A stretch of DNA of 64,000 nt, taken from a virus. Every line of letters begins with the position of its first letter. Within the stretch, counting starts at the first letter, position 1. Both the position numbers and the translations under genes were made by a program. The stretch covers positions 1 to 64,000 of the IMG/VR virus record IMGVR_UViG_3300036768_001501; one strand, 5' to 3'. Of this stretch, positions 21,808 to 61,751 are shown one piece after another. The notes beneath the pieces are model-generated. The model was not told where the DNA came from. It worked only from the letters and a program-made list of their open reading frames with translations, and did not search any database.

Positions 21808-22812
21808 GTGTTGCTTAGCTCCTCAGCTCTTTGCTCGATCGACGACGTCCGAGCGTACCTGTACGGCACTACAGGTAACGAAAAACTAGATCGTGTCATT
21901 GCGCTGATGATCAACGGCCTGTCTGTTGCCTTCGAGGCGGCGACAGGCCGTAAAATTTTGCGCACGCAGCGCGTGGAGGAGTTCAATTCCCCACAGCATG
22001 TCGTGCAGTTGTCTTATCGCGTCGAAGCTCCGCCAATTGTTCCTGGGTCGGTTACGTTGAAATATAGTCCAACGCGGGATTTCGTTGGTAACGTAACGGC
22101 CTATACAGAGAACAAGGAGTATGTTGTTGATTATAACAACGGCATCATTTCTGTTGTGATGCCTTCTTTCTGGGGTGTTGGCTGGGGCGATCCAATGCAT
22201 CCGATTGCTTACAATGCTTCTAGCGACCTGTACGGCTTTCCGCGCGAAACTCACTCTCTGCAAGTCACTTACGTTGGCGGGCTGGTTGTTCCGCGTCCGG
22301 CACAGCCGCAGTTGCCGTTGCACTCGCTCAGTGCCGGCAGCCTTTCAGGCAAGTACTTGTATTCGTTTAGCGTTGTCGATGCTAGCAATGTCGAGACAGC
22401 ATCGACACGTCCATTTTTGCAGCTTGATTTGGCTAACCAGCAAGTGACTTTTACTTTCCCCGACCCTGGGGCTGGCAAGAAGTACGTTATCTACCGTAGT
22501 CCAGCCAATACAGATGATCTGTTCTTCTTGGCAGAAGTGAATGGCCCGTGGCCAGCCACGTACGTAGACAATAATGCGGACAGCGCCTTGAACAGTACGC
22601 GATTGCCATTTTCTCCAGGCCCGCTCGAAGTTCCTGACGACCTGCGTCTAGCCGCCGCACAGCAGGTGGCTGACTGGGTGAATCGCGGTGGTTCAGTGAC
22701 TACGGTGGCAGTTTCTGGCCCGCTTGGGCTTGGCTCGCGTCAATACGATGGCAGCAAGTTTACTTCGTTTATGCAAGAGATGATTGTTGCTTATCGTATC
22801 CTAAGAACCTAA
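21808..22812 (+). CDS. Head-tail adaptor (gp6/gp15-like) with an inserted Ig/FN3-like domain
   Basis: LCSIDDVRAYL, VTYVGG, VPDDLRLAA..YR. The insert GKYLYSFSVVD..ETAS..YVIYRS..TYVDN lies between the last two motifs. Confidence 0.8.
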   Translation: MLLSSSALCSIDDVRAYLYGTTGNEKLDRVIALMINGLSVAFEAATGRKILRTQRVEEFNSPQHVVQLSYRVEAPPIVPGSVTLKYSPTRDFVGNVTAYTENKEYVVDYNNGIISVVMPSFWGVGWGDPMHPIAYNASSDLYGFPRETHSLQVTYVGGLVVPRPAQPQLPLHSLSAGSLSGKYLYSFSVVDASNVETASTRPFLQLDLANQQVTFTFPDPGAGKKYVIYRSPANTDDLFFLAEVNGPWPATYVDNNADSALNSTRLPFSPGPLEVPDDLRLAAAQQVADWVNRGGSVTTVAVSGPLGLGSRQYDGSKFTSFMQEMIVAYRILRT

Positions 22813-22869
22813 GCACTTAAGTTGCAATTTCTGTTGCATGGCTCAGCTTTTGAGCTATGCAACAGTGCC

Positions 22870-26911: not shown

Positions 26912-28282
26912 ATGCCTACAGCAAAGACTACGTACTCGATTGTAGATTTTACCGTTGCTCAGGCGGCCATTGAAGACAATGGGTATGGCCAGCTTGCGGT
27001 TGGTACGCAACTTGAGTTTTTACCGGTTTACAACGCAACCGAGCCGCTGGTTCAGCACGTTCAAGGCTCGGACCCGATCGAGCTAGCTGATTCGCAGCTC
27101 GGTCCTGCTGCATTTTATGTGACTGAGCCGACTTACCGGATGTCGGCAACGACATATGTTTATTGTAGCGATCCCGACAATCCGCCCCCTTGGGCCAGCA
27201 TTTTGCTTCAGTGCAGCGGTTTCAAGAAATCCGTTTGGACCGGCACTGCGCCGTCTGGGACTTTTACTGCCGGCGCGCTTCAGACTCCGGGCAAACTGGC
27301 CAACGGAACTTACAAATATGTATTTTCTGAAGTTGACAATGTGCAACTTTCTGGTGGCAATCCAAGCCCGACTTACCGAAACGAGACCCCAGCATCTAGC
27401 TCGTTGACGGTAAACGTGACTGGTGGCCCCGCTAATGTTCCTCTTAACTTGCCAGCAGCAACTGCTGGCAAGGTGTTTCGTATTTATCGTACGAAGGCTG
27501 GTGGTAGTGATTACTATTTTGTTGCTGAGATGATTAATGGCGCTGCGCAGACGTATGTCGATTCTACTCCTGATAGTGATTTGGATATTTCTCGTTCCCC
27601 AGTTACTGCTACTGGTGGCACGTTCTTTTATCCACTGTCGGAGCATTTCCCCAGCGCCCAAATTAAGGTTTTCATGCACTCGCATAGCCGGACGCTGATT
27701 GGTGCACGTGGTACGTGGACTCTCGACGCAGAGGCTGGCCGGGCTATGCCAATGCGTTGGGACATTAATGGTCTATATAACCCAGCGGTTGCTGAGGCCA
27801 ATCCATCGATTGGCGTACTGAATCCTGGAATTCCGTTTATTTTCCGCAACGCAGTTCTTACTCTTGCTAAGACTACTCGTGGAAAGACATCTGGTAGCGG
27901 TGCGACGATTACGGCGATTGTGAAGTCCATTTCGATTACCCCAGGTACTCCGCTGGATAATAGACGTGATGCTTCTACGTCTACTGGCCTTAAGGAAATT
28001 GGTATTCATCGCCGGTTCGACCCTCGGTTTGAGGTGGTTTTCGAGGTTGATCGCAGTTTCGCATTTGATGCGGTTGAAGAGTACAATAGCATGACTCTGT
28101 TCTCTGCGGTTTTGAAAGTCGGGTCTGGTCCTGTTGTCCGGTTCCATTTCCCGAACATGCAGATCATGGATGCTCCAGCGCTTGTGAATCAAGACGGCGG
28201 CATTCTCTGCTGGCGAGTCGCATTTCGACCGCGTCCTTATCAACGAGACGATTTCATGAAGATTTCGTTCCTGCCTAGCTAA
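26912..28282 (+). CDS. Major tail (tube) protein with an inserted Ig/FN3-like domain
   Basis: Position, ILLQCSGF, LIGARGTWTL..AG, FHFPNMQI. Followed by a terminator and the chaperone genes. Confidence 0.8.
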   Translation: MPTAKTTYSIVDFTVAQAAIEDNGYGQLAVGTQLEFLPVYNATEPLVQHVQGSDPIELADSQLGPAAFYVTEPTYRMSATTYVYCSDPDNPPPWASILLQCSGFKKSVWTGTAPSGTFTAGALQTPGKLANGTYKYVFSEVDNVQLSGGNPSPTYRNETPASSSLTVNVTGGPANVPLNLPAATAGKVFRIYRTKAGGSDYYFVAEMINGAAQTYVDSTPDSDLDISRSPVTATGGTFFYPLSEHFPSAQIKVFMHSHSRTLIGARGTWTLDAEAGRAMPMRWDINGLYNPAVAEANPSIGVLNPGIPFIFRNAVLTLAKTTRGKTSGSGATITAIVKSISITPGTPLDNRRDASTSTGLKEIGIHRRFDPRFEVVFEVDRSFAFDAVEEYNSMTLFSAVLKVGSGPVVRFHFPNMQIMDAPALVNQDGGILCWRVAFRPRPYQRDDFMKISFLPS

Positions 28283-46233: not shown

Positions 46234-47748
46234 ATGCAGTTTGTGGTTTCCCTGTACTCCAGCCGAGCGATCGCTATGCCCGCAATGCGGGCGTATGAGG
46301 ATATTGAGACGTATGGCACCGTCCTGGCTGGGGTATCCCCAGGGAAACTGAAGACCGGCGAGCCAGTGCTTCCAATTCTAGCCGCGAATCCGGTCATTGT
46401 GCGTGAGATTAGTGTTTCAAGAAGGCAATCAATTGATGCCTCTGTGTCTATAGACATCTATCACACTGGGCTTGAGATTATAGATAAAGCGCGCGATGAC
46501 TATCTACGTGTGCGCATCTATGCTGCCAAGTATGATGGGACAGACGTTACGCTCCTAGACCCAGTTTTTGATGGGAGCGTTATCAATATAGCATCATCTA
46601 GGGGGCGCGGAATCATCACAATCGATGCCTCCGAGTACGATGACCGCATCGGCTCTATGTTCCCGCCAGAGCTGATTACTCGTGCCGACTTCCCCGACGC
46701 CCCAGACCTTGTTGCTGGAACCCTGAATAGGCAGATTGTGATCGGCCCGTTCCAGTACCCGATACCGGCAAGGCAAGTGGATCGCGATGGGCGTGTATTC
46801 TACATTTGCGACCCGCCGCTTTCTACTCCGCCTGCAATTGTATACGCCGACGGTAGGCTTGTGCCATCTAACAGTTACAGCTTTTTCGCTGGTCGGATGC
46901 AGAACAGCGGACTTGAGTACACTGGTCTGTTGTTCTCTCGCCCAGTGTCCGAAGTTGTTGGCAAGCCAGTGCAGTACGTGACCGTTTCGCATGGGCAAGG
47001 TATGCGCGCATCTAACGCGATTGAAGCACTGGCGCGCGTCTCTGGTATTGGTATTACGAGGCGGTTGACTGCGCTTGCGAAGGATATGGAAAGCGATTTT
47101 CCGATGTCCATCCTTCTCAATAAGCGCGATAATGCCTTCTCGATTCTCACCAAGCGCATTCTTCCGCAAACTCCATACATTACGCGCATGTACCTGGGCC
47201 TAGTTGATATTGTAGATGCGAATTTCAACAACTCACCAGTGGCTGAAATTCAGCCAGGAAATGGTTGGATTTCAGGACAGATTGGCGTTAGCCGCGCTGG
47301 TTTCGGCGATGTTGTCAATAACCTGCAGGTGAACGTTGGTATGACGCATCATGGCGGTCCGGCTCTGAGAAGGCCGCTCATGCAGATTGTCCGCAATGCG
47401 ACAAACGGACCGTACAATTTGCGCTCCATTGCAAGCCGCTCTCAATCAATCTACGGCCCGCGCGCACTCACAATTGATGCTGGTGATCTCATAGTGTACT
47501 GGGGACCTAATGGGCAGCCAATCAGTCCATCGGGGGAGCGACTGGCGAATTATATCATTCAGCACAGCGCCTTTGAGGGCGTGCGGTACACATACGCATG
47601 TTCAGATGATGCCCTTACAGTACTTAGTCTCGGTGACGTAGTGGAGTTAACAGACCCGCTGGTTGCCGAATCGACCGTGCGGGCCATAGTTGTAAGACAG
47701 GAGTTCAGCAGTGCTCCGACGATTACTTTTGAGCATATTTTTGCTTAG
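46234..47748 (+). CDS. Baseplate hub/tail tip protein
   Basis: VFDGSV, ITRADFPDAP, SQSIYG, LSLGDVVELTD pattern, and position. Confidence 0.7.
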   Translation: MQFVVSLYSSRAIAMPAMRAYEDIETYGTVLAGVSPGKLKTGEPVLPILAANPVIVREISVSRRQSIDASVSIDIYHTGLEIIDKARDDYLRVRIYAAKYDGTDVTLLDPVFDGSVINIASSRGRGIITIDASEYDDRIGSMFPPELITRADFPDAPDLVAGTLNRQIVIGPFQYPIPARQVDRDGRVFYICDPPLSTPPAIVYADGRLVPSNSYSFFAGRMQNSGLEYTGLLFSRPVSEVVGKPVQYVTVSHGQGMRASNAIEALARVSGIGITRRLTALAKDMESDFPMSILLNKRDNAFSILTKRILPQTPYITRMYLGLVDIVDANFNNSPVAEIQPGNGWISGQIGVSRAGFGDVVNNLQVNVGMTHHGGPALRRPLMQIVRNATNGPYNLRSIASRSQSIYGPRALTIDAGDLIVYWGPNGQPISPSGERLANYIIQHSAFEGVRYTYACSDDALTVLSLGDVVELTDPLVAESTVRAIVVRQEFSSAPTITFEHIFA

Positions 47749-48097
47749 TTTGCCGGCGCACGCGCAGGTCAAGCCGCCAGCTATTGGCGACATTATGATG
47801 TCGTCGCCGGATGTCAGGAATTTGACAGAATCCTGCGTGCTGGCATTTTCCAAGCAAAAGAGGCAGTTTATCTGCGCGATCCGGATAGATGTTCAACTTT
47901 CTCCAGGGCGTGAAACACTTGTGTTCAATCCTTATGTTACTCAAGATAAGAAAGTCCTATGCGGTTGTGCGTACGGCTGTAACCCACAGGGTATGGTGCT
48001 CGGGTACTATTCGGTGTCCAATGTAGATAATGGCGGATTCAAAATTGACCACGCCTATGCAATTGGGAACGAAAAGATTAGTTGTATTGTGTATTAG
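47711..48097 (+). CDS. Exported small Cys-containing protein
   Basis: Signal peptide MLRRLLLSIFLLSLPAHA|Q. C-terminal beta domain ends GFKI..ISCIVY. Confidence 0.7.
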   Translation: MLRRLLLSIFLLSLPAHAQVKPPAIGDIMMSSPDVRNLTESCVLAFSKQKRQFICAIRIDVQLSPGRETLVFNPYVTQDKKVLCGCAYGCNPQGMVLGYYSVSNVDNGGFKIDHAYAIGNEKISCIVY

Positions 48098-48136
48098 CAG
48101 CATGGTAAAATAGCGGCACTAAGAGAGAGGTAATCG

Positions 48137-48445
48137 ATGGCACCCGAAACCCGCGACGCAATTGCTATCGCAATTATCTGGTTGCTGATGCAGCTTCTTA
48201 AGGTTGCCAAGCGAAAGTTTGGGGATCGTGTGCCTGTCCTGAAGGGCATTGATGAGGATCAGCTTAAGAAGTTAATTCCTATTCTCTCCCTACTTTTGGC
48301 TGGTGGTGGGTACGCGGCTGGCGCACTAGACGACCCACAGAGTGCAGTGGCTGTTGGTGGTTTGGCTGTAGCGGCCAACGAGGTTGGCAAGGCGACGGGT
48401 CGTCTAGTGCGCTCTATTGCTGGGAAGCCAAATGACCAACAATGA
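48137..48445 (+). CDS. Putative holin
   Basis: 102 aa with 2-3 hydrophobic segments, immediately before the endolysin. Confidence 0.7.
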   Translation: MAPETRDAIAIAIIWLLMQLLKVAKRKFGDRVPVLKGIDEDQLKKLIPILSLLLAGGGYAAGALDDPQSAVAVGGLAVAANEVGKATGRLVRSIAGKPNDQQ

Positions 48446-48878
48446 ATACCTGCTCCTTCTCACCCTTGATGAGCTTGCTTTACTGCGCGGCCTTATCGCT
48501 GGCGAGGCCGAGGGGGAGCCGTACGTCGGCCAGGTGGCTGTGGCGTACGTCGCAAAAAACCGTGTCAAATATTCAAAGCAGGCCCTGGTTCCCTGGTGGC
48601 CCAGGAGCCTTAAGCAAGTCATTCTCCAGAAGCACCAGTTTTCCTGTTTTTGGGAAGACTGGGACAAAAGACGCAAAATCATTCTTGAGGCCATTCATTC
48701 GCCGGAGAAGTACCAGAGGATCGATATGGCCGCGAAGGATGCTTACTATGAGCGGCTTCCTGACCCGACCCTGGGGGCGGATCATTACTTTTCCATCAAT
48801 ATTAAGCTGCCAAAGTGGGTAAAGTCAATGACGAAAACAGTGAGAATTGGGCGCCATGAATTCTACAAGTCAATCTAG
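48432..48878 (+). CDS. Endolysin, SleB/Hydrolase_2-family cell wall hydrolase
   Basis: GEAEGEPYVGQVAVAYVAKNRV, VILQKHQFSCF, GADHYF, IGRHEFY. Confidence 0.92.
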   Translation: MTNNEYLLLLTLDELALLRGLIAGEAEGEPYVGQVAVAYVAKNRVKYSKQALVPWWPRSLKQVILQKHQFSCFWEDWDKRRKIILEAIHSPEKYQRIDMAAKDAYYERLPDPTLGADHYFSINIKLPKWVKSMTKTVRIGRHEFYKSI

Positions 48879-49266
48879 TGGTACTAAGACAAGGAAGAGG
48901 GGAAACGGCAGGTCCTGCGCCGAGATTGAGGTGCTAGCTAACCGCCTTGACATGCTAGAGAAGACTGTTGAGGGGCTGGCGCACTTGTCTCAGCAGATTG
49001 CCGAGATGTCGGCACAGATGAACGGCATCAAGGCGGATTTGTCGCGGCTGATTCTCCATGTGGAGAATCCAGCAAGCGCTGATCGTTCTCTGATTGTTCG
49101 GATCAAGAGCGTGGAAGATAAACTGTCATCTATTGAAGATACCATTGGGAAAGCTAGTGATTTTGCTCGTCAGGTTGGCGTTAGACTGCTTGTGTACTTT
49201 ATTGCTGGCATGGTGAGCGGCGGGGCTACGATTGCTGCCGTCCTGAAAGTACTTGCGGAGCACTGA
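48847..49266 (+). CDS. Coiled-coil protein with C-terminal transmembrane helix (lysis accessory-like)
   Basis: Heptad coiled coil followed by LLVYFIAGMVSGGATIAAVL, directly after the endolysin. Confidence 0.65.
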   Translation: MGAMNSTSQSSGTKTRKRGNGRSCAEIEVLANRLDMLEKTVEGLAHLSQQIAEMSAQMNGIKADLSRLILHVENPASADRSLIVRIKSVEDKLSSIEDTIGKASDFARQVGVRLLVYFIAGMVSGGATIAAVLKVLAEH

Positions 49267-49268
49267 GC

Positions 49269-50084
49269 ATGAGGAGAATCCTGGGATTAGCTCTAGGCGT
49301 ATTTCTTTTGCTTACCACGCGGGTGGCAAGTGCGCAGATTTATTATTTGATGCCTGGGGACTTGGTTCCTGCTTCTAGTGTTGCGCCAATTAATTTTCAA
49401 ATTGTTGATCCAACATTCAATGGCGTAACGGTGAATGGGCGGAGTCGTTGGCCGTATGCGCAAACAGGGTTTATGGCAAATGCATATCAGTCTGGATCGC
49501 CGAATTTTGATGACGCGACCAACTACGATTACGGTGTTATGTTCGTGGTGCATCCTGAATTTGTTGGTCGTGATGATTCTTCAACCTTCCCGACAGTCGT
49601 GATTAAAGAAAGAGTGGTTTTCTTTTCGCTGGGAAACGCTGCAAGCTCATTTTCCCCACAGTATGTGTGTTTTAAGTTTCGCTACCAATGGATCAATGAC
49701 GGCTCCTCTATTAATGAAGCAAACAACTTTCGACCTGCGTCTGGATGGGGAGATAGCACTAATTGCGTGGATATAACAAATAAGCCTGCGCGTGAAATGA
49801 TTAAAAGCGTGGTGACTATTCCAACTACAGTGATTGATGCAGCAACCAGTGGCAGTTGTACGCCTGGTACTACGCGGTGTCCACGCGGGACGTTAATCGG
49901 ACACATTTATCGTATACGCGCTAACGACATGTGTGGAGGTTCTGGTACACCATTTACCTGTTGCACTGGCAATGGCACTGGAAACTGTTGCGATGGGCCA
50001 TCTAACAGCGCAACAGCATGTAACATTCAACAAGAAAGCGTGCCAATCTGGGGCGTGAAGCTAGTTGTTGATGGTGGCCTATGA
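49269..50084 (+). CDS. Exported Cys-rich beta-sandwich protein
   Basis: Signal peptide ending VASA|Q. CGGSGTPFTCCTGNGTGNCC; ends VPIWGVKLVVD. Confidence 0.8.
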   Translation: MRRILGLALGVFLLLTTRVASAQIYYLMPGDLVPASSVAPINFQIVDPTFNGVTVNGRSRWPYAQTGFMANAYQSGSPNFDDATNYDYGVMFVVHPEFVGRDDSSTFPTVVIKERVVFFSLGNAASSFSPQYVCFKFRYQWINDGSSINEANNFRPASGWGDSTNCVDITNKPAREMIKSVVTIPTTVIDAATSGSCTPGTTRCPRGTLIGHIYRIRANDMCGGSGTPFTCCTGNGTGNCCDGPSNSATACNIQQESVPIWGVKLVVDGGL

Positions 50085-50770
50085 CTACGGTGCGTGCTTT
50101 TGCAATTTTACTTTGTATATTTCTGTTGCCAGCCGGAGTTAATGCGCAGCTTGCTTACGGCAAGGGCTTCGTGCCGGCGACTGCTCTTTTCCCCTCTTCC
50201 GGAACATCGTGTACTCTACAGAGTTCCATTGGGGACAATACGGTTAAGAACAGAACATACTGGTGGAGCTGCACTGTCGGTAGCTCAACCACGGCGCGGT
50301 TCTCCTTTGTATCACCAGCGCTTGGGGCGACTTATGGGCAAGCTGCCGTTGCTGTGCGGATTATGAACTCCAACACGGCAGCGAAGGACATTTGCGCGGT
50401 TTTTTCTAGCCATGCCTACTTTTCGGCTGGCGCATTGCAAGTGAACCAGACGGGTTCAAACTGGCGTAATACCGCATGGACCGGCGGCTCATTGGGGAAC
50501 GCCCAACAGGTAACAATTTCTGCAAACACAACTCCGTGGTTGCTAATGGCAGCGCCGTCTGCGTCTGCCGCTGGCCCATCAATCATTGATGTTATGAACG
50601 CTTCCCCATCCCCAGCTTCGTCGGCAAATGAAATTGTTGTTCGTGAGGTAATCATTGGTGGGTGCAGCAACTTTTGTAGCGGGACAACACCGCCTACATG
50701 CTGTAACCCTAGTAGTTGCTCTTCAGACTATTCAGGTACGGTGAGAATCTATGGGGTTCATTTTTACTAA
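50081..50770 (+). CDS. Exported Cys-rich beta-sandwich protein (paralog)
   Basis: Signal peptide ending GVNA|Q. GCSNFCS..TCC..SSC; ends GTVRIYGVHFY. Confidence 0.8.
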   Translation: MTTVRAFAILLCIFLLPAGVNAQLAYGKGFVPATALFPSSGTSCTLQSSIGDNTVKNRTYWWSCTVGSSTTARFSFVSPALGATYGQAAVAVRIMNSNTAAKDICAVFSSHAYFSAGALQVNQTGSNWRNTAWTGGSLGNAQQVTISANTTPWLLMAAPSASAAGPSIIDVMNASPSPASSANEIVVREVIIGGCSNFCSGTTPPTCCNPSSCSSDYSGTVRIYGVHFY

Positions 50771-51470
50771 TGCAGTTGCGTTGCTGTTTTTGGCCAGCGT
50801 GGCTCAGGCCATCAGCTATACGTACACTTATGGCCCACAGTCTCTGATTGTGCAGCCAATGCTGGACGGCTCTACGGACGCTCCGAGTGATTGCGTATTG
50901 ATCAATGACACTTTAGTTGCTGGCACGACCAGCCCTCATGCGCGCGTTCTGTACTGTAGGAATAATGAGGACCAGAACAATGAAGGTGTTTTTGGCATTC
51001 ATGGGATTGTGCCAGTAGGGGCTACGCGCTTTGATATTATCGTTGATGTATACTCAGAGAGTGCTTCTAGTGGAAATCTTTGCGCTGTGGTGAACAATAC
51101 GGTCATTGCGCAGTGGGCTTTTACCGACGCTGGTATAAAGCAGGGGGTGCGATACGATAGTGGGCCGGATGACTCTTTTGTGTCTGGCCTTTCTGGTGTT
51201 CTTGGCCCAGTTGCGGTGTCTGGAGCCAAAAGGCGCGTAAAGTTGAGCGCTAATAATGTGCAGTTGGCTTACATTGATAGTATTGGCAATCGCCAATACT
51301 GCGGTGGTACGATATGCAATGAGCAGTACTTCCGCATGGAAGTGTACATTCAGGGATGCCAGAGGCTTTGTTCGTTTGTATCCCCGCAATTTTCATGTTG
51401 CGGCACTAGCTCATGTACCGATATTGGCAAAGTAAAAGTCCTTGGCGTGACCCTGAATTTACATGACTAA
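50751..51470 (+). CDS. Exported Cys-rich beta-sandwich protein (paralog)
   Basis: Signal peptide ending VAQA|I. GCQRLCS..SCC..SSC; ends GKVKVLGVTLNL. Confidence 0.8.
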   Translation: MGFIFTNAVALLFLASVAQAISYTYTYGPQSLIVQPMLDGSTDAPSDCVLINDTLVAGTTSPHARVLYCRNNEDQNNEGVFGIHGIVPVGATRFDIIVDVYSESASSGNLCAVVNNTVIAQWAFTDAGIKQGVRYDSGPDDSFVSGLSGVLGPVAVSGAKRRVKLSANNVQLAYIDSIGNRQYCGGTICNEQYFRMEVYIQGCQRLCSFVSPQFSCCGTSSCTDIGKVKVLGVTLNLHD

Positions 51471-51488
51471 GGTTTACGGGGATGCGGT

Positions 51489-54400
51489 TTGTGGCTTGGT
51501 GTAGCAACACTATTGGCGATTTTCTCGTTGGCAACCAGTGCGCTTGCGCAGCAAGCGCAAACTGCCGTTCAATTATCTGGGGGTCCAAACACTCAATCTT
51601 ATATTGAACTTCCTGGTAGCGTCACCTACCATAGCAGTACAGGGATTTCGCTTTCCGCCTGGATCAAGTGGGATGGGAAGCGCTATTCTGGAGCTAGCGA
51701 GGCCGACTGGATGTCGGTCATATTCAAGGGGAATTTTAGCTCCGGTGCTTATGGTATTCTAATTAGCCGCTCCGACAGCAATAGCTCCAACGAGATTCGC
51801 TGTTACTACGGCTCTGGTGCTTATGTATCTTACGCTGTAACAAGTGGTCTTGATACTAACTGGCACCATATCGCGTGTACCATTGCGCCAAGTCCTAGTA
51901 ATAACGTCAAGATATACCTAGACGGCTCTGTTGTTGCGAACCAGGCCGTTACTTTTTCCATTACTGACAATACTGCTTGGCCACTCCGCATTGGTGGTCA
52001 TAACGGTTCACAGTACTATTATTTCGGCGGCCTGATTGATGATGTACGTATCCACAGTTCTGCTGTAGCGTCGACCGAGATTTCCGGCTTTTACAATAGC
52101 GGCAATGGTACGTGCCAAAATACAGGCGCTTTGTCTTTCTATTATCCTCTGGACGGTCATGGCACGAACATGGTTGGGACAAGCGGGGATTATACAAATA
52201 TTGTCAATGCGTCCTGGTCACCGAGCGGGAAACTTGATTGTCGTGGCGGTAAGTTCGGTCGCGATTCGGCTGGCACAGAGACAACAACATACTTGGAGTT
52301 AGCCGATTCCACTTCGCTTGACCCGTCCACGACCATGACCGTTGAGGCGTGGTTCAAGTGGGACGGCGCTACGGCAGGTGCGCCAAACGACTGGATGTCG
52401 ATTGTCTCCAAGGGGACATATAGCAGCGGCGAGTATGTCATTCTCATGAACCGCGCATCTAATACGTCTCAGCGCGAGCTGCGTTGTTATTTCACCAACA
52501 GCTATGTAAGTACTTATGTTCCTGTTGATCTGCTGACGAGCTGGAACTACGTTGCCTGCACTCGCAACTCCTCCCAGATGAAGATTTATCTAAACGGGCA
52601 GCTTATGAGCACAGTGACGGCCCCGGCCTCGCAAGCAAACAATACGTCGCCATTGCGTATTGGCGTCCAGTCCGATGGCGGGTATCGGTTTGTCGGCCTG
52701 ATTGACGATGTGCGCGTTTATAATTCCGAGCTCAGTGCTTATGATATTTACCGTAGGTACAACATGGGTGGTGGTCCATGCGACGTATCTACGTCAGCAA
52801 ATCCGTTCTTTGTTGCCACGCTAAATGGCGGGCGTAGAGTAGCGGTTGGTACTAGTGGCACGCCGACGCTTGCAACTCTGTCTTCAACATCACCGCTTTG
52901 GGATACTGGTATTGTGCCGTGCGCCGATATTCCAGACCAGATTGCTGGCGGGCAGGAGATTCAGTTTACCCCAACGCCGACCAGAACACCAACGAACACG
53001 CATACACCTAGCCGTACTCCAACCAATACCCCCACGAACACACCAACTAACACCCCGACATTTACACCAACGAGAACCAATACTCCGACAAACACACCAA
53101 CTAGTACTCCAACCCCAACCGTAACTCCACTCGGCGGCGGTCAGGAAGTGCAATTCACTAGCACGCCAACTAGGACCCCGACTAACACACCGACTAACAC
53201 GCCTACATTCACGCACACGCATACACCAACCAACACCCCTACGAATACACCAACTAATACTCACACAAATACACCAACTAATACTCCCACAAGGACGCCG
53301 ACGAACACACCTACGAACACGCCAACAAGCACTCCTACTCCCACGGTGACTCCACTTGGTGGTGGACAAGAGGTTCAATTCACTAGTACCCCGACAAGAA
53401 CACCAACTAATACGTCCACTCAAACACCAACTAACACGCCCACTCGCACGCCAACCCACACGCCAACTAACACACCAACATTTACATTTACAAATACTCC
53501 AACCAGAACACCAACGAATACACCTACGAACACTCCGACAAACACACCAACTAGTACTCCAACCCCAACCGTAACTCCACTCGGCGGCGGTCAGGAAGTG
53601 CAATTCACTAGCACGCCAACTAGGACCCCGACTAACACACCGACTCGCACGCCGACTAACACGCCAACTAGGACATCAACAAGCACTCCAACCAATACTC
53701 CAACCAGCACGCCGACTTCAACCTCAACGCGAACTTATACCCCGACTAACACGCCGACCAGTACGCCGACCCCTACGGTTACCCCGCTCGGCGGCGGGCA
53801 GGAGGTTCAGTTCACAGCTACTCCCACACGTACCCCGACCGGGACGCCGACTAACACGCCGACCGGTACACCGACTTACACCCCAACGCGGACGCCCACA
53901 AACACGCCAACAAATACTCCAACAAATACGCCCACCCAGACATCGACGCAGACACCAACGCCGACCGTAACCCCACTAGGTGGCGGGCAGGAGATTCAGT
54001 TCACAGCTACCCCTACCAGGACTTATACCAGAACCCAGACCATGACGCCGACCGTGACTAATACCGTAACTCCAACCAGGACCAGTACGCCAACCATTAC
54101 GCCAACTAGTACTCCAACCCCAACCGTAACCCCACTCGGTGGTGGTCAGGAAGTGCAGTTCACCAGCACCCCGACAAGGACCCCGACAAATACGCCCACT
54201 CGAACACCAACAAACACTAGCACCGTTACACCGACACGAACGCCTACCCCAACATCAAGCCCAACTACTACGGTAACCAGTACTAGTACGCCAACAGTTA
54301 CCCCGACGCCAACGGCGACTCCACTAGGTGGTGGTCAGGAAATTCAGTTTACCGCTACGCCTACGCGCACTTTCACCCCAAGCATTACACCTACCGGAAC

Positions 54401-55313
54401 CATTCCGCCCTCAAGCACACCAACCAGGACACAAACACCGAGCAATACTCCAACGGTAACACCTACGCCCACCCAAACACCGCTCGGTGGCGGGCAGGAG
54501 ATTCAGTTCACAGCTACCCCTACCAGGACTTATACGTTTACTCCAAGCCCATCTCACACTGCTACATTTACCCCGACAGATACTCCAACTGGTCAACCCA
54601 CAAGTACGCCCACACGCACGCCAACGTCGACTGTTACCGGACTGCCAACGAATACACCAACTGCAACTCCAACTCCGACAGTTACGCCGCTCGGCGGTGG
54701 GCAAGAGGTGCAGTTTACCCCAACTCGTACAGCAACTGGCACACCTACGCCTACATCTACGCTAACGCCGACTGGCACTCCAACTGATACGGCAACGCCA
54801 ACGCCCACCCCGCTTTATTCTTATACACCTACGCCGCTCGCTACCCCAACACCATCGCCTTTAGGTGGCGGTCAAGAGGTGCAGTTTACGCCAACCAGAA
54901 CCGTTACGCCCACGCCTACAATGACCAACACAATGACCCCAACCCCAACGAATGTGCCGACCAGGACTCCGACTCCGACATTGCCTGGCACTTATACACC
55001 TACGCCCATCACGACGCCGACCCCGAAGCGCGAAGAGAAGGTCACCACGCACAGGCTGTTTGCGGACTGCGCTGACTTCACTACTCAGACCGGAGCCTGG
55101 GTGACTAGATATTTGACTTTCTCAAGACAGCCGTACGACGGTAGCGTTGCGTACTGCTGGCTACCTGGTGGCGGTGGTAGGATTATGTCAATGGATACCC
55201 GAATTACTTCCGCGCATGCATTCCTAACTATCGGAATTTACGCAACTAGGCCAGGCAATCCGCGATTACGGGCTTGCTGTCTGATTTACAGTTCCGAGCA
55301 GAGGTTTGAATGA
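51489..55313 (+). CDS. Exported adhesin-like protein: two LamG domains, mucin-like Thr-Pro stalk and Cys-containing C-terminal domain
   Basis: Signal peptide ending SALA|Q. Two LamG repeats ([33 protein letters not shown]), then about 700 aa of Thr/Pro repeats. Confidence 0.9.
52940..55030 (+). repeat. Coding Thr-Pro repeat region with 11 GG(G)QE(V/I)QFT nodes
   Basis: Direct count in the translation. Includes an identical 114-bp copy at 53082-53195 and 53532-53645. Confidence 0.95.
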
Positions 55314-55328
55314 TTTTGGTTGCCTTTA

Positions 55329-55337
55329 TGATATAAT
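55329..55337 (+). promoter_or_regulatory. Extended -10 promoter inside the exported-protein cluster
   Basis: TGaTATAAT in the intergenic gap, upstream of AGGAG and ATG 55359. Confidence 0.6.
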
Positions 55338-55358
55338 CAAATGCAACAGGAGAGTACC

Positions 55359-56429
55359 ATGAAGAGAGCAATTTTGGCCCTAGCTCTTATGTTTGTAGCT
55401 TCTATTTCTCGTGCTGCCTGGCGCGAGGAGGTGAACGGCATCAATGGCGTGCCGATGCCGTCGCGCATGACGCAGTTTGACGTAGATGACAATGGTGATA
55501 TTTATGTAGCCCAAACGTCGTTTACCGCTGACCGGCACGGCCTTGCTGTTGTGAGGCGCATCCACAACCGTATCTCCGACGTTGTGTTTGCCTATGAAAC
55601 CAGGGCAACGGGAATTGGTTGCACCGTGTTACTGGATATTCGGAACGGCCATAAGCTTGTCTATTTCATGTGCAGTAGCAGCGAACGTGGGGTTTACGAC
55701 ATTGACGCAGGTACGACTAACCCAGTTCCGTACCTGAATCAGCCAATGCGCATGCTGGCACTGAACGACGGACTGTATTTTTCGCCATACGCCCAGCTTG
55801 TGAAGTTGGCGGACGGAACGTTGTCAACAGTGTTTGGTAGCGGGACTCGGTTCGCTTGCGATTCCTCCGGTACCGATGCTCCACTCATCAGCTCTATGGC
55901 CTATCTAAATAAGTGGTATTTTGCTGAAACTGCTTGTTATGGGATCGGATCGCTTTGGCGCCTGAACGGCAGGGGCGCGGAGCGGATTACCAGCTTTACC
56001 GGCGCACAACCAAGTGTTGGACAAAGTATAATCGGAAGCAAAGTGCAGTCACCCGCTCTTGATGGTCGCGGCAATCTCTTGGCCGTACTGGATCGCGCTA
56101 CGTCAACAGTTTATCTTTTGGGCGAAGACCTGGTTGTGACAGGAGCCGTTGACTCTGTGCCGGTTTCTTCTGGTTCGTTTGCGCGCGTAATTCTCGGGCC
56201 ACGTCGTGTGTACGTGCTGGACGTGCAGCGGGAGACTATCTATTCGGAACAGATTCCTGGCATGCCGGAGCCGACCAACACGCCTGAGGTTCCTACGGCC
56301 ACGCCGACAAGTCCACCGGTTCCAACGAACACGCCAGAGCCAACCGCGACAGTGCCTGCACCTGTGTGTCCGGCTGCGGTTTGTGATGCACTAAGATCAG
56401 CCGCAACGCTTTGCGGGTGTAACTTGTAA
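55359..56429 (+). CDS. Exported beta-propeller-like protein with Pro/Thr tail
   Basis: Signal peptide MKRAILALALMFVASISRA|A. NHL-like FDVDDNGDIYVA and RVYVLD; PT linker and Cys-rich end. Confidence 0.75.
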   Translation: MKRAILALALMFVASISRAAWREEVNGINGVPMPSRMTQFDVDDNGDIYVAQTSFTADRHGLAVVRRIHNRISDVVFAYETRATGIGCTVLLDIRNGHKLVYFMCSSSERGVYDIDAGTTNPVPYLNQPMRMLALNDGLYFSPYAQLVKLADGTLSTVFGSGTRFACDSSGTDAPLISSMAYLNKWYFAETACYGIGSLWRLNGRGAERITSFTGAQPSVGQSIIGSKVQSPALDGRGNLLAVLDRATSTVYLLGEDLVVTGAVDSVPVSSGSFARVILGPRRVYVLDVQRETIYSEQIPGMPEPTNTPEVPTATPTSPPVPTNTPEPTATVPAPVCPAAVCDALRSAATLCGCNL

Positions 56430-56448
56430 GTCAAGAAGGAGCTCAGGC

Positions 56449-56940
56449 ATGGTGTACGTGCTTCTCGTGTGTTCGTGGCTGTTCACTAGCGTTGCTTATG
56501 CACAAGCAGATCGTGGCCTCGGGATTCAGACAGCGGCTACGCCAACCGCCGTGATTGATGCGCATTGTTATAACTATAACGGGGAACAAAGGTGCGCTGA
56601 CAAGATTATTGATTCCCCACGCTGGAACCGCATCTACCAAGGCCCATTTGTAGGCGGTACTCCTGGTACGCCTACACCGGCGATACCACCAACACCGACG
56701 GTTGGGGCTGGTACGCCAACGCCTATTCCTGCTTCCTGGTGCTACTGTTGCGCTAGGGGTCCGACACCTAATACGGGGCGAGTCTTGGTGTCCGTTGGTC
56801 CACAACCGTGGGGTGGCCCTGGTATTTATTTATCGGACTCGGATTGCGTGCGCTATCCCGCTCCGGCAACAGGTGATTGTTCCAACTTGTACGTAACCAG
56901 GCAGAACGTAGGAGACTACGTACGATGCGACATGCAGTAA
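56449..56940 (+). CDS. Exported Pro/Thr/Cys-rich protein
   Basis: AAGGAG RBS. Signal peptide ending VAYA|Q, PT linker, paired Cys. Confidence 0.75.
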   Translation: MVYVLLVCSWLFTSVAYAQADRGLGIQTAATPTAVIDAHCYNYNGEQRCADKIIDSPRWNRIYQGPFVGGTPGTPTPAIPPTPTVGAGTPTPIPASWCYCCARGPTPNTGRVLVSVGPQPWGGPGIYLSDSDCVRYPAPATGDCSNLYVTRQNVGDYVRCDMQ

Positions 56941-59900
56941 TCTCAATTGGGCTTGTCGGCCTAATGTGCGCGCTTGTTGTCAACGCGCAGCCGCGCGTAG
57001 ATGATGCCTACTCAGATAGCGAAGCACGCAGATCGATTCAGGCCTCTCCACCACTATCTTATGATTCTTCCACTGGCACAATGTCATTACCGCAAACCGT
57101 ATGGCCGCTTACTTGGGGCGGCACGAATAACGGGGCACTTACAGATAGCCCAACTGGACAGGTTCTGCGTGTAGTTGGCGGCCAGGTCGTTAATGCACCA
57201 GTTCCGCAAGCTGATATTGCGAGTGCGTTCGCCCTGTATGTTGACCCAGCCGGTACCGATGGCCCCGAGTGTGGCCCAATCAACAAACCGTGTAAAACGA
57301 TTACAGGGCCGCAGGGTGTGCATGCGCGGATTCTGGCGAATAATGACAATGGGGCTTTTACATGTTCTAACGACAATGCCAAAAGTTGCATGCGCTGTGC
57401 TGGCGGTACGAATTCAGGGGCGACATGCAACGAGCATCGCGATTGTACCGGAGGCGGTGTGTGTTCAACGCTTGTGTGCAGTGGTACGGATACACCATGC
57501 ATGAAATACTGTTCAACGAGCGATATTGGCTGCTCAATTGACAATGATTGCCCATCGAATGAAACATGTTCCCGTACTCATCCGTCGTCACCGTGTGCAG
57601 CGGCATCATGTGTCAATGGCCCCAGGAGTTGGTGCGGTGGTGGTGCATGTAATATATTCGCAACTAAGACCTATGCGATTAACTTAGCTGTAGGCCAGTA
57701 CAATGAATGGATTGGCTTTGCGTGCCAAGGAAATCAGAATATCCAATGCCACACCGATGCGGACTGCGGAGCGAACGGTCCATGTATTGATACAACAGTA
57801 AAATCTATTCCATCCCCTGGCTGGCTTACGTACATTGGGCCAGATCGGCAATCGGCGGCAATTATTTCTGGATCAAGCATTGCAACGATGTATGTTTCCA
57901 ACAGGCTTACCCTCGCGTTTCGGCGTTTGCAAATAATAAATGTCGGCAACGGAAACGCGTTATGGTTTGCTGGTGATGTGTGGGGCGCGGGCGTAACACA
58001 TAGCGGGCTAGTTCACTGGGGTGACGGATACGATGCCATTATTTCTGGCCCAGGCAATGTTACAGTAGGTTTTGACGATATTTGGACGTACGGTTTTAGC
58101 TCAAATGCTTCATTTCGCTCTATTCGCATTGAGCACGACAGCGCACTGGTATGTGCTAATAACACGCAATTTTCATGTTTGTCCGATGCTGATTGTCCGG
58201 GGTCATCGTGTGTTAAGAATAGGCGTTTTGGGTCAAGCGGCGCGATCCAATCTGTTATATCTCCACGTGCATCCGGTGGATCTGGTGACTCTATAATTGA
58301 TTTTGCATTTATTCAGGGAGGATCTAAAGTAACAGCAGATTATCAAGGGCAAGTTGAGTTTGTGTTTAATCGTTGTGCTAGTGGCTTTAACACTGGCATT
58401 GTGCGCAGCTTGATTAATGGATTCTCGTTCCCATCGCCGTACAAACATGCCGCTTTGGTAGCTATTCGTGGTCCATGCCAGTCAAACAATGCTTTCATAT
58501 CTGGAGGTATATCCCAGGTGTCAGTACGAGATACAACTTTTGCGAAGTTGCGTTCGATTCCAGATAGGTCGCCGTTGTACGATATGATTATTGGTGACAA
58601 AGTTGATATGCTCTATGCTGGCAACGTCGCGTATAATGCCTGCCGTCGGCGCTTCGAGGGCACGGGCACGATTAGATATATTGACCCGAACGCCAGGACC
58701 ACTGATCTTGGCCAGCGCTGGGGAGGCAATGCTGGCGGTTATCTTGGGGTGCTTGACTGTGACCAACCGCAGACCACAACGCTTGCTTCGCCGACAGTGA
58801 CACTCTCGCAAACTACGGGCGGTACACTTAGCAATGGGACTTACTGTTATCGCGCGACCGCTGTGAGCGAGTTCGGGGAAACTGTCGCCGGCGATGCTGC
58901 ATGTATCACGCTTAGCGGCTGCAGTTCGAATTGCGCCGTGGCAATTACGGTGAACCAGGTTCATGGTGCCACTGGGTGGAAGATTTACGGACGACCGACT
59001 ACATCCGGAGGCACGTTCGGGCTTTTGCAGACGCTCTCTAGCTGGTCGTCGAATACATGGACGGATACTGGTGGTGGCACACCTGGCGCTGCACCGCCTA
59101 GTACAGATAGCTCTGCGCAACCGAATCCTATCGATGGCGAACTGTGGATGTCCAAGGTTGGCACGCGATATATCCCACGTTACCGTTCCGGTGGCACAAC
59201 TTATTCGATTCCAATCGGGCAAACCGGTGATGGGACTAACAACGGCGGTACGGTTGGATTTTTTACGCCTGACGGAACGCAGTTCGCGTCAATTTTAGAC
59301 GTACCAGCTTTTTCCTTTACGCTATATCAAACTAATCGCGCCACTGTAGGTATTGGTATTAATGGCACCGGCCTGCTGTCATGTAGTACTTTTGATAGTA
59401 ACAGATGCTCAGTTCCCAATGCCCCAATCTCGGCGAACCATATAGCCAACAAGTCGTATGTGGATACGAGCAAGCGTACGCTCCTGCTTTCGCCGATGGC
59501 ATTCACTGCTGCTACGGCCTGCACGCAGGATGTTGTCGCACCAAGTGGGAATACCCCAGGATATAGTTATCTTTCCTGCCCTGATGCCGCCGGGTCGGAA
59601 TTCTCGGTCGTTTTTTCCATGCCAGACGGATGGTCAGGGTCAGCGCTTGCAGTAGCGCCTGTTGCGTTACATCGCGATTCCGCGAGCAACACGCTTGCGA
59701 TTGATTGGAGTTGTAAGTGTGTTTCCTCGGGGTCTGCGATTACCGCTGCCTATGGCACGACGGCTACGACGTCGCAAACGGCATCGAGTGCAGATACTGT
59801 GACGCAGGCCACGTTCACTAATATTACCTGTGCGGGTACATGTAGTGGCACGTCAACTGTGGCGTTGCGTGGAGTTGTGAATACTACCAGCAGTAGCTGG

Positions 59901-59963
59901 ACCAACGATCCGCGCATTCTCGGGGTAGAGGTGCGGTATGATCGGTCGGCGCATTCTGACTAG
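56925..59963 (+). CDS. Exported tail-fibre/tailspike-like protein (beta-helix, Cys-rich repeats, FN3-like domain, C-terminal beta-sandwich)
   Basis: AGGAG RBS and ATG 56925. Signal peptide MRHAVISIGLVGLMCALVVNA|Q. LYVDPAGTD..CG..KPCKTI beta-helix cap, CxxDxDC repeats, fibre-like motifs PLTWGGT and HIANKSYVD. Confidence 0.8.
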   Translation: MRHAVISIGLVGLMCALVVNAQPRVDDAYSDSEARRSIQASPPLSYDSSTGTMSLPQTVWPLTWGGTNNGALTDSPTGQVLRVVGGQVVNAPVPQADIASAFALYVDPAGTDGPECGPINKPCKTITGPQGVHARILANNDNGAFTCSNDNAKSCMRCAGGTNSGATCNEHRDCTGGGVCSTLVCSGTDTPCMKYCSTSDIGCSIDNDCPSNETCSRTHPSSPCAAASCVNGPRSWCGGGACNIFATKTYAINLAVGQYNEWIGFACQGNQNIQCHTDADCGANGPCIDTTVKSIPSPGWLTYIGPDRQSAAIISGSSIATMYVSNRLTLAFRRLQIINVGNGNALWFAGDVWGAGVTHSGLVHWGDGYDAIISGPGNVTVGFDDIWTYGFSSNASFRSIRIEHDSALVCANNTQFSCLSDADCPGSSCVKNRRFGSSGAIQSVISPRASGGSGDSIIDFAFIQGGSKVTADYQGQVEFVFNRCASGFNTGIVRSLINGFSFPSPYKHAALVAIRGPCQSNNAFISGGISQVSVRDTTFAKLRSIPDRSPLYDMIIGDKVDMLYAGNVAYNACRRRFEGTGTIRYIDPNARTTDLGQRWGGNAGGYLGVLDCDQPQTTTLASPTVTLSQTTGGTLSNGTYCYRATAVSEFGETVAGDAACITLSGCSSNCAVAITVNQVHGATGWKIYGRPTTSGGTFGLLQTLSSWSSNTWTDTGGGTPGAAPPSTDSSAQPNPIDGELWMSKVGTRYIPRYRSGGTTYSIPIGQTGDGTNNGGTVGFFTPDGTQFASILDVPAFSFTLYQTNRATVGIGINGTGLLSCSTFDSNRCSVPNAPISANHIANKSYVDTSKRTLLLSPMAFTAATACTQDVVAPSGNTPGYSYLSCPDAAGSEFSVVFSMPDGWSGSALAVAPVALHRDSASNTLAIDWSCKCVSSGSAITAAYGTTATTSQTASSADTVTQATFTNITCAGTCSGTSTVALRGVVNTTSSSWTNDPRILGVEVRYDRSAHSD

Positions 59964-60657
59964 TGTTGCGTGCCTGTCACTCGTGTCCAGCGAGGCACTA
60001 GCCTACACGTACTTGCAGGTCTGCAACGCCGGAAGCACAACCTTTACTACGTCCATAAGTTGTAGTGGCAATGTTCCCGGCATGGGGGCGGTCGTTGTTG
60101 CTCATTCTTCTGATAATACCTCCGGATACAGTATTACATCATCATGGGCAAGCGCCAGCCCCTTGAGTAGTACACTTGAGGTCAACAATGGCGCTAATCT
60201 TGATGGAGTTGGGCGAACATTCAGTGTGCCGTCTGCAGCAACTGGAGCAGCATGGTCAGGTTCTTTTACGGATAGTGTACGTGTCAAAAACATATGCGTT
60301 GCGCATATAGCACACACGAGGGTTTTCAATCTGACTCAAACACAAACAGCGACTGGTAGCGGCACGACTGTCTCTGTGCCTGCAGCCACTACGAGCTGCC
60401 CTTCTGGCTATACTATGGCAACGATTGTGTCTGTAATGACATACTCTGGCTCTGCGCCGACCTTATCGGGCACTGGGACGCAACTCTGCGGCATAGATAA
60501 CTTTGTCTCCTCGACGCATCGCGCCACATTCCAGCACGGGTACGATGGCAGCAATGCATTCAGTGGCACGCTGTCGGTATCTGCAACGTGGGTGGCGATA
60601 GCTTATCGTTTTTGCCCGAAACGCAACATAGCGGGGTGGATTGGGACAACTGACTGA
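59938..60657 (+). CDS. Exported Ser/Thr-rich beta protein
   Basis: Signal peptide ending EALA|Y. Resembles phage accessory beta-sandwich domains (ATWVAIA near the end). Confidence 0.75.
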   Translation: MIGRRILTSVACLSLVSSEALAYTYLQVCNAGSTTFTTSISCSGNVPGMGAVVVAHSSDNTSGYSITSSWASASPLSSTLEVNNGANLDGVGRTFSVPSAATGAAWSGSFTDSVRVKNICVAHIAHTRVFNLTQTQTATGSGTTVSVPAATTSCPSGYTMATIVSVMTYSGSAPTLSGTGTQLCGIDNFVSSTHRATFQHGYDGSNAFSGTLSVSATWVAIAYRFCPKRNIAGWIGTTD

Positions 60658-60668
60658 GGAGCAGATGA

Positions 60669-61751
60669 TTGAAGCGGGCGGTCGGGATACCGATTTGTGT
60701 CGTTGTGGCGCTAGCGATTTATGTTATTGCTACGCGCCCAAGCAAAGTTGGCGCTTATCCTCGTCCATTTTGGTTCGGTGCACCGACAAGTACGCCTACC
60801 CCTACCAATACCCCTACACATACCCCTACGGATACGCCAACGAACACCCCAACGAACACGCCCACCAGCACGCCAACGAACACCTCGACCCATACGCCCA
60901 CCTTGCCCCCCACAAGCACCCCAACCAATACTCCGACAAGCACGCCAACTTCAACACCAACGCGAACTTATACCCCGACCAGCACGCCGACTAATACGCC
61001 GACGAGTATCCCTACAGAGACACCGACTAACACGCCAACAAATACGCCAACACCTACGTCTACGCCGATTGGCGGCGGACAAGAAGTACAGTTTACCGCT
61101 ACACCGACAAGGACACCGACGAGTACAAGCACCAGTACGTCTACAGGAACTCCAACATATTCACCAACGCCTACAGCATCTCCGACATATACTTTTACGC
61201 CTACCGCTACCCCAACAGCCACGCCAACACTCGGGCCGAACGACTGCTGTGAGTGGCTTGAGTCCGGCACATGGCAGGCCTGCGCAATTCCAGTGGCCGG
61301 CATTTGTCCTACAGGGGCAACTGGCGTGTACGGTGCCAGGTGCGTTGACGGCGTATGTTCAACAACGCCAATTGGGAACTGTCCACCGACGCCAACGCGC
61401 ACACCGACACCAACGGAGACACCAATTGAGGTTGGCGGCGGATCAACGTTCGGCAATACATATCCGCGTGAGGAGATTGTTACAACGTATCGGCTGCAGA
61501 ACGGCTGCATAAATATAACAGTAAGCGGTTCGTCTACGGCTGTGTTCTACGTTCCGCCCAACGTCCCTGTTCCAAATTTGTCATCTTATGTAGTACACTG
61601 TAGTGTGTCTGGCAATCAGTATCTAAGCGTTGACGAGATTGCGATGGTAACCGACAGTTACGCAGTGGTTTGGGTTTCGAACGCATCGGCCTCGATGCAG
61701 GGAGGACAACTATGTTGTCTCTTCTACAATCAATCGCAGTTATATCCTTAA
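60669..61751 (+). CDS. Exported or membrane-anchored mucin-like protein, partial paralog of 51489..55313
   Basis: N-terminal hydrophobic signal, Thr-Pro repeats with GGGQEVQFT, Cys module [14 protein letters not shown]-terminal [15 protein letters not shown]. Confidence 0.85.

Follow-up and report, generated by a model that had tools for sequence, protein, structure and literature searches.

A leader-bearing, cysteine-rich, tailspike-like protein of a tailed phage and its relatives at tail-fibre loci

We analyzed a stretch of 64,000 nucleotides (the window), the first 64 kb of the 91.5-kb linear virus record IMGVR_UViG_3300036768_001501 of IMG/VR (completeness ~90%), and concentrated on one late gene, the target gene, at positions 56925 to 59963. 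Its product was found to combine a Sec-type signal peptide with parts of the tailspike and fibre type. What is new here is a leader-bearing, disulfide-rich tailspike-like protein with an unclassified tip resembling a carbohydrate-binding module (CBM), and the leader and the paired cysteines turned out to be family traits of spike- or fibre-like proteins at tail-fibre loci in several phage types. The parts of the gene are the following.

56925..59963, plus strand: target gene, 1012 codons plus stop; 43 cysteines in total, 42 of them after the leader
56911..56915, plus strand: AGGAG ribosome-binding site, read from the sequence, 9 nt before the ATG at 56925
56925..56987, plus strand: predicted Sec-type signal peptide, residues 1-21 (MRH / AVISIGLVGLMCALV / VNA, then Gln-Pro)
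56988..57227, plus strand: post-leader segment, residues 22-101, ~80 residues between the leader and the beta-helix
57228..58772, plus strand: predicted right-handed parallel beta-helix, residues 102-616, with 30 cysteines and four CxxDxDC knots
58773..59129, plus strand: FN3-like module, residues 617-735, predicted local distance difference test score (pLDDT) mostly 70-90 over about residues 617-716
59130..59462, plus strand: beta-rich linker, residues 736-846, pLDDT 42-71, fold poorly resolved
59463..59960, plus strand: tip domain ('D-domain'), residues 847-1012, predicted CBM6/35/36-like jelly roll, pLDDT >90

The ATG at 56925 was taken as the true start, and not the TTG at 56877, because in the orthologue L002 the equivalent ATG is the first start codon downstream of the preceding stop. 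The orthologues P0006-P0008 are identical to the target in length and start. A first reading of the letters without database searches (the sequence-only reading) had described a clean signal peptide after an AGGAG ribosome-binding site, and this description held: the leader has a positive n-region, a hydrophobic core of 15 residues and V-N-A before Gln22, with the cut predicted after residue 21. Leaders were called by eye together with a hydropathy rule, in the target and its homologues alike, and the sequence features expected of a substrate of Sec and signal peptidase I are all present (n-region, h-region, small residues at -3/-1, no Pro at +1). A leader was found in every full-length homologue at 33-87% identity, with V-N-A or V-Y-A and then Gln-Pro kept at the predicted cut in the orthologues. 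The leaders of P0005, P0009, P0010, P0014 and P0017 differ in sequence, the leader itself being kept as a feature.

At full length, the target had no match in Pfam, PHROG, NCBIfam or the sequences of the PDB. A word-indexed search returned only three near-identical fragments and P0005 (33% identity), and IMG/VR contigs encode three full-length orthologues with 85-87% identity. When 1.84 billion representatives were searched with a profile, 2196 matches were obtained, and these divided the target into modules: N (residues 40-101, the post-leader segment with a GGT block), A (residues 102-295, the knot region), B (residues 296-616, the helix), C (residues 617-735, FN3) and D (residues 847-1012, the tip domain), the last of which is always C-terminal in matches of 190-1400 residues. 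Look-alikes from the ESM Atlas scored <0.9 and were used as leads only. The nearest relatives lie on viral contigs, and not among the ordinary bacterial surface proteins that the sequence-only reading had named as the opposite outcome.

We then classified 149 of 156 proteins by domain profiles and the leader rule; the other seven, nearly identical to the target or fragments of it, were excluded. Leaders were present in 6 of the 70 proteins that contain FN3 only (0.41% cysteine), in 50 of the 57 with the tip domain only (2.3% cysteine) and in 21 of the 22 with any A or B module (about 4% cysteine). Leader and cysteines are therefore traits of the knot, helix and tip modules. Most leaderless tip-domain matches look like fragments, and the sole leaderless protein with an A or B module is a fragment of 300 residues. 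Judging from these matches, the FN3 module is common to ordinary leaderless phage virion proteins. Cysteines make up 2.95% of the proteins of the leader cluster to which the target belongs versus 0.48% of the leaderless structural proteins, a six-fold excess, and a leaderless protein of 3907 residues has none. The nine cluster proteins with cleavable leaders (47711-61751) contain 6, 10, 8, 10, 12, 8, 8, 42 and 6 cysteines in their mature parts, all even numbers. Folding outside the cytoplasm is the simplest reading of the leader and the cysteines throughout the family, and is very probably correct.

These data bear on a different view of the N-terminus, in which the hydrophobic stretch would be an uncleaved anchor that keeps the spike attached to the inner membrane, on its periplasmic side, until lysis, or would not be used for export at all, the cysteines being oxidized after release. 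The cleavage site was predicted by eye only, and the next-but-one gene (60669-61751) encodes a clear anchor and a Pro-Thr linker, so that tethering does occur in the cluster. However, V-N-A or V-Y-A followed by Gln-Pro is a good signal peptidase I site that the orthologues keep, the differing leaders of the distant homologues are all of the cleavable type (ending in AQA, AYA, AHA or GAQ), and the cysteine excess and its strict pairing are tied to the leader family-wide. We consider either form of this view improbable.

The structure was predicted with AlphaFold2 on two half-length curated alignments covering residues 22-625 and 617-1012; a global alignment of 62 sequences (A3) scattered unrelated segments over the query and was left out of folding. 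The model of residues 22-625 reached a predicted template modelling score of 0.79 and a pLDDT of about 90 over residues 102-581. In a fold search the helix matched known structures with Z-scores of 17-23.5, among them the glycoside hydrolase BT_1002 (Z 23.5), ORF18 of Geobacillus virus E2 (21.5), alginate lyases and epimerases (about 21), Fri1 gp49 (20.9) and CBA120 TSP2 (20.1), and many pectin methylesterases and lyases also matched. Foldseek against the PDB and against viral models (BFVD) agreed with a beta-helix. Four knots of the form C-x2-[DNRH]-x-D-C lie at residues 168, 203, 275 and 418, a number reached in 0 of 20,000 shuffles. The model and the knot count thus support the earlier description of a beta-helix interrupted by CxxDxDC repeats.

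Phage tailspikes and depolymerases (Fri1 gp49, CBA120 TSP1/TSP2, Dettilon gp208, Klebsiella Depo32, K5A lyase) have, like the target, a beta-helix of the pectin-lyase type (Z 17-21), and they share with it a C-terminal beta-sandwich after the helix, a gene in the late region and exchange as a cassette. These tailspikes are not known to carry a signal peptide; they contain few disulfides, if any, attach to the particle through a recognizable N-terminal domain and fold in the cytoplasm. In contrast, the target has a leader, 42 cysteines after it and the four knots, whereas no docking domain was recognized and a sequence match to tailspikes is absent. The fold is likewise shared with exported bacterial beta-helix enzymes (Pantoea stewartii WceF, Salmonella VexL, AlgE-type epimerases, pectin methylesterases; Z 16-21). 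Enzymes of the WceF/VexL type are exported and act on the polysaccharide of their producer, but they are encoded on the chromosome in polysaccharide biosynthesis loci and lack fibre motifs, FN3 and the tip, and we found no sequence similarity between them and the target.

The FN3-like module showed 38-44% identity in tblastn to a 'baseplate protein' of a jumbo phage and to the 'tail sheath' of phiRSL1 and, through P0005, a match to major tail proteins of Arthrobacter phages. Its model resembles the capsid decoration domain of SPO1 and the muzzle domain of crAss001 (Z about 10). The sequence-only reading had seen this module in two virion proteins as well, and the FN3 profile indeed matched two leaderless open reading frames (ORFs) of the virion module, 21808-22812 and 26912-28282 (E about 6e-10). 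The motif HIANKSYVD (residues 839-847) closes the linker that follows, its last residue lying inside the tip domain, and its SYVD core is kept in P0010.

The terminal beta-sandwich expected from the sequence was recovered as the tip domain, which superposes on CBM6, CBM35 and CBM36 modules with Z 11-12.5 and a root-mean-square deviation of 2.6-3.3 A over 120-135 residues; Foldseek returned CBM22, CBM35 and CBM11. By sequence, a profile search of the tip domain gave no Pfam or PDB match, and in 30 tip-domain members we found no CBM-type Pfam family, the sole match being a weak one to DUF6266 (E 0.0086). The model thus suggests a CBM-like fold in a domain that is not a member of CBM6/35/36 by sequence. 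Unlike these modules, the tip has conserved cysteine pairs of its own and a '...LGV..EY....SD' ending, and it invariably closes the leader-bearing phage proteins in which it occurs. In an alignment of 47 sequences, Cys932 and Cys973 occur together in 46 and are jointly missing from 1, Cys866 and Cys885 occur together in 42, and Cys930 and Cys969 occur together in 17 and are jointly missing from 26. Such co-occurrence is as expected of disulfide partners and points to putative bonds 866-885, 932-973 and 930-969. The tip constitutes a clearly delimited family, represented by 57 clusters or more, without a Pfam entry or a solved structure. A different C-terminal tip is shared by P0014 and P0017 ('...ADECVDNN..GCAQ.TG.TLQDD..L...' and '...G.VKLQWAQ...'), and the helix module therefore combines with at least two alternative tips.

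Taken by themselves, these folds also suit a protein that never joins a particle, namely a free glycan-active factor that would be exported late in infection, would bind, cleave or modify host capsule, exopolysaccharide or lipopolysaccharide from the periplasmic or surface side and thereby release progeny from debris, as a receptor-destroying enzyme, or mask the receptor. T5-like phages encode small exclusion lipoproteins beside their receptor-binding genes, and a free factor would be the enzymatic counterpart of these. Secreted lyases and hydrolases of polysaccharides are typically built from a leader, a beta-helix, FN3 and a CBM, and among the closest matches in structure are BT_1002, alginate lyases, VexL (a periplasmic depolymerase) and WceF, which is exported and tailspike-like. 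The target gene, moreover, lies downstream of the lysis genes and outside the core tail genes. On the other hand, surface action would still require crossing of the outer membrane, and two features of the family described below, its N-terminal regions and its gene neighbourhoods, speak against a free factor. We regard a free factor as unlikely.

All three fibre-type motifs quoted in the sequence-only reading are present, SPPLSYDSSTGTMSL at residue 41, PLTWGGT at residue 61 and HIANKSYVD at residue 839. The proposed likeness of PLTWGGT to LPVANGGTG is borne out by the residues that homologues have at the same alignment column: LPVANGGTNNG in P0005, LPVNVGGTGAT in P0017, LPLAQGGTNNG in P0010 and LPLGKGGTNNA in P0014. 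A tblastn search with residues 35-104 against 50,697 phage records gave nothing significant, and the LPVANGGT stretch of P0005 had only insignificant matches among GenBank phages; because of this, the claim of fibre motifs rests on the homologues and not on direct similarity. The motif at residue 61 belongs to a block, PLTWGGTNNG...SPTGQVLR...GQVVN..VPQ (residues 61-96, with invariant columns from G65 to Q95), and residues 65-96 are the best-conserved stretch between homologues of 33-37% identity. In the monomer model, residues 22-101 have a pLDDT <50. A block that is conserved and yet modelled with low confidence suggests an interface for oligomerization or docking, and a protein-protein contact of this kind would argue against a free factor.

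The fibre character is more pronounced in the relatives, the target having the shortest shaft in the family. P0014 consists of a leader, a collagen triple helix, the GGT motif and the same helix modules; its collagen repeat is recognized by Pfam (E 6e-12) and by tail-fibre PHROGs (E as low as 1.6e-19), one PHROG match extending to residue 355. In P0005, a stretch of 180 residues made up of cysteine-looped fibre repeats separates the leader from the GGT block, and a repeat of this type in the tip-domain protein of locus L010 matches a tail-fibre PHROG. Judging from these proteins, the family is fibre- or spike-like and probably trimeric. Collagen or fibre-repeat shafts of up to about 2000 residues before the same modules would be hard to explain if the product were a soluble enzyme.

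In a pattern scan, 16 viral contigs proved to encode the tip domain, and among about 185,000 species genomes it occurred at only one locus, a lambdoid prophage (L005). In this prophage a leader-bearing tip-domain gene, a gene of ~250 residues and a gene of 620 residues, all three leader-bearing, stand directly after gpJ homologues, and in lambda the side-tail-fibre genes occupy the position after gpJ. The post-leader segment of the L005 tip-domain protein (GGTNATTEADARTNLG...) matches a tail-fibre PHROG (E 1.5e-8). The leader trio recurs in most viral tip-domain loci, among tail genes (e.g., in L010). The presence of the tip-domain family exactly at tail-fibre loci in several phage types is a further argument against a free factor.

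The trio loci (L005-L019, e.g., L010:8828-13404, L013:9482-14000 and L005:9014-13145) lie in tail modules of many uncultured phages and comprise a tip-domain protein of 340-770 residues, a protein of 230-270 residues (LamG-like in L010) and one of 620-920 residues that often starts with ...YWV..GG. In the present phage, unlike in the trio loci, helix and tip are fused into one protein. We also compared the 239-residue product encoded downstream of the target with the middle trio protein (~250 residues), and the third trio protein with the helix of the target; neither pair showed significant similarity in BLASTP, phmmer or profile searches, and the likeness of the 239-residue gene to the middle trio gene is limited to synteny, size and the leader.

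For leader-bearing proteins that reach virions, the only checkable evidence was found by analogy in the Cellulophaga phage phi18:3 (NC_021794), a cultured podovirus in which gp085-087 are consecutive late genes, all three with Sec-like leaders, whose RefSeq annotation as structural or tail proteins stems from tandem mass spectrometry. These proteins differ from the target in having 0, 1 and 3 cysteines and a Bacteroidota host, the annotation is silent on leaders, and no homology between them and the target family was detected.

The reading that we favour, at somewhat less than an even chance, is that the target is an exported tailspike-like host-recognition protein that docks on the virion after export. 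According to this reading, the protein would be made late, cross the inner membrane through Sec and be cut after VNA (residue 21). Oxidation in the periplasm would yield a disulfide-locked, probably trimeric spike, the beta-helix of which would bind or cleave surface polysaccharide while the jelly-roll tip would bind glycan. The spike would join the particle built in the cytoplasm only after holin and endolysin have mixed the compartments, or at lysis, and would dock through the conserved GGT block (residues 61-96) to serve as a receptor-binding or depolymerase spike of the virion. That the target in fact ends on the virion as a spike matured in the periplasm is a proposition we advance with slightly more reserve; it is favoured by the relatives at tail loci, the collagen and fibre shafts of the family, the conserved GGT block and the phi18:3 precedent. 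More doubtful still is the extension to the whole spike family, which would then be matured in the periplasm with ~21 disulfides and mounted after holin action or lysis, amounting to a two-compartment assembly of tailed phages.

Several observations weigh against a place on the virion. The ~80-residue post-leader segment contains no known head- or tail-binding domain by Pfam, PHROG or NCBIfam, which, together with the tblastn result against phage records, is also what a free factor would predict. The sequence-only reading had proposed to look for homologues in which a virion-attachment N-terminus replaces the signal peptide; among the 150 best representatives there was no leaderless homologue with a virion-docking N-terminus, and the knot, helix and tip modules are hardly ever seen in a protein that lacks a leader. 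L010 has leaderless tail-fibre-like genes beside its leader trio, so that the trio need not be the only receptor binders, a situation that a free factor would equally accommodate. The trimer was deduced from P0014, whose identity to the target amounts to 29% in the composite alignment A3, the domain layout is also that of ordinary secreted glycanases, and a periplasmic protein must still reach a cytoplasmic tail.

The sequence-only reading had called the target the strongest single link between the exported cluster and virion ancestry. This view is upheld in so far as tailspike or fibre parts do stand behind a conserved leader, the FN3 module is shared with leaderless virion-module proteins, P0014 contains collagen and relatives occupy tail-fibre loci; the docking N-terminus for which it proposed to look was not found among the 150 best representatives. 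'Virion ancestry' is therefore plausible, the main grounds for it being the promiscuous FN3 module and likeness at the level of the fold.

Tailed-phage assembly is, in textbooks, wholly cytoplasmic. Literature searches on exported tail fibres and on the GGT motif turned up no publication on such a phenomenon, and the published accounts of tailed-phage assembly that we found do not describe an export route for a spike-like protein. If the proteins of this family are virion parts, phages would have a second, extracytoplasmic assembly compartment in which disulfide-stabilized receptor binders become possible, with a bearing on host-range prediction, on the engineering of robust receptor-binding proteins and on the interpretation of 'secreted' phage genes in metagenomes. 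If they act freely, 5-15% of a phage genome would be spent on exported glycan-active factors linked to host recognition, which are little studied.

Leader-bearing fibres are known from Bdellovibrio bacteriovorus, whose MAT fibres have a signal peptide, a phage-fibre-like trimer and a variable C-terminal tip, one of them with a disulfide (Caulton et al., 2024; PMC10769870). They are encoded by bacterial chromosomal genes, are displayed on the predator surface and share a beta-rich post-leader domain of ~130 residues, many with an S74 chaperone-protease (PMC10769870). The leader and the fibre-like build are common to MAT fibres and the target, but none of the MAT-specific features was seen in the target (no S74 or other match in Pfam), and the only link is a weak fold match of the target tip to Bd1399 (E 1.2e-3).

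The target gene overlaps both of its neighbours and travels with them as a cassette.

56449..56940, plus strand: upstream gene, 163 residues, leader-bearing and cysteine-rich; 16-nt overlap with the target start; co-travels with the target
59938..60657, plus strand: downstream gene, 239 residues, leader-bearing; 26-nt overlap with the target end; co-travels with the target
56509..60877, plus strand: cassette of ~4.4 kb, about 81% nucleotide identity (blastn) to L002-L004, which are otherwise unalignable GC-rich phage contigs

The 163-residue gene, the target and the 239-residue gene lie within the cassette, as does the anchor-encoding part of the gene that follows. The upstream gene is 87% identical in L002 and the downstream gene 76-84% identical in L002-L004. 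In these contigs the cassette has a GC content of 56-57% and its flanks 65-69%; here it has 52% in a genome of 52%, and its GC content at third codon positions (0.47) falls within the 0.45-0.55 of most tail-side genes. Judging from this composition, the cassette was apparently passed from a phage similar to the present one to GC-rich phages, as happens with host-range modules. The product of 60669-61751 has an uncleaved-looking N-terminal membrane anchor followed by the Pro-Thr linker; in the cassettes of L002-L004 its first ~37 residues are conserved (52-80%) and the remainder differs. It may serve as a membrane tether for the exported set. L003 and L004 both lie on IMGVR_UViG_3300036768_000756 (68,186 bp), in two block copies of at least 15-20 kb that each contain the target cassette, are about 85% identical and lie about 33.7 kb apart in the same orientation. 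Two strain variants of a ~34-kb genome may have been assembled head to tail here, or the duplication may be real.

The mobility of the cassette would also fit a moron or lysogenic-conversion gene, whose product would be an accessory carbohydrate enzyme or adhesin, secreted to the advantage of the host. About 5% of 64,678 prophage carbohydrate-active enzymes carry signal peptides and have been read as metabolic helpers (PMC13507307), and signal-peptide genes of Porphyromonas phages have been read as surface modifiers (PMC10367356). Nevertheless, we found no integrase or resolvase in the ~90%-complete genome, and the gene overlaps its neighbours within a long same-strand late block, promoter- and terminator-like sites being no commoner than in shuffled sequence. 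The family is practically absent from bacterial genomes and thus not host-derived metabolism, and no enzyme family of Pfam or NCBIfam was matched. A moron is therefore, in our view, hardly probable.

The source of the record is a tailed phage, as is evident from its terminase, portal and capsid genes.

15770-17344: large terminase (TerL)
17354-18760: portal
20186-21358: HK97-type capsid protein
48417-48878: SleB-type endolysin

Besides the 3907-residue protein mentioned above, the same phage encodes one of 1695 residues. The target gene lies in the late region, past the head, giant-protein and lysis genes, and is one member of a near-unbroken same-strand run of genes with N-terminal leaders (47711-61751, by a crude hydropathy screen) that only the lysis genes interrupt. 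Within this run, 51489-55313 encodes a leader-bearing protein of 1274 residues that contains two Laminin_G_3 domains (E 3.9e-49) and partially matches a model of the TafC fimbrial protein; the same LamG type was seen in the middle gene of the trio in L010. An ATPase of the SbcC/SMC type (AAA_23, SMC_N; PHROG 77) is encoded at 22822-25044, amid the head-tail structural block. The N-terminal sequence of the ORF at 604-1632, judged by eye in the ORF listing, looks RecA-like.

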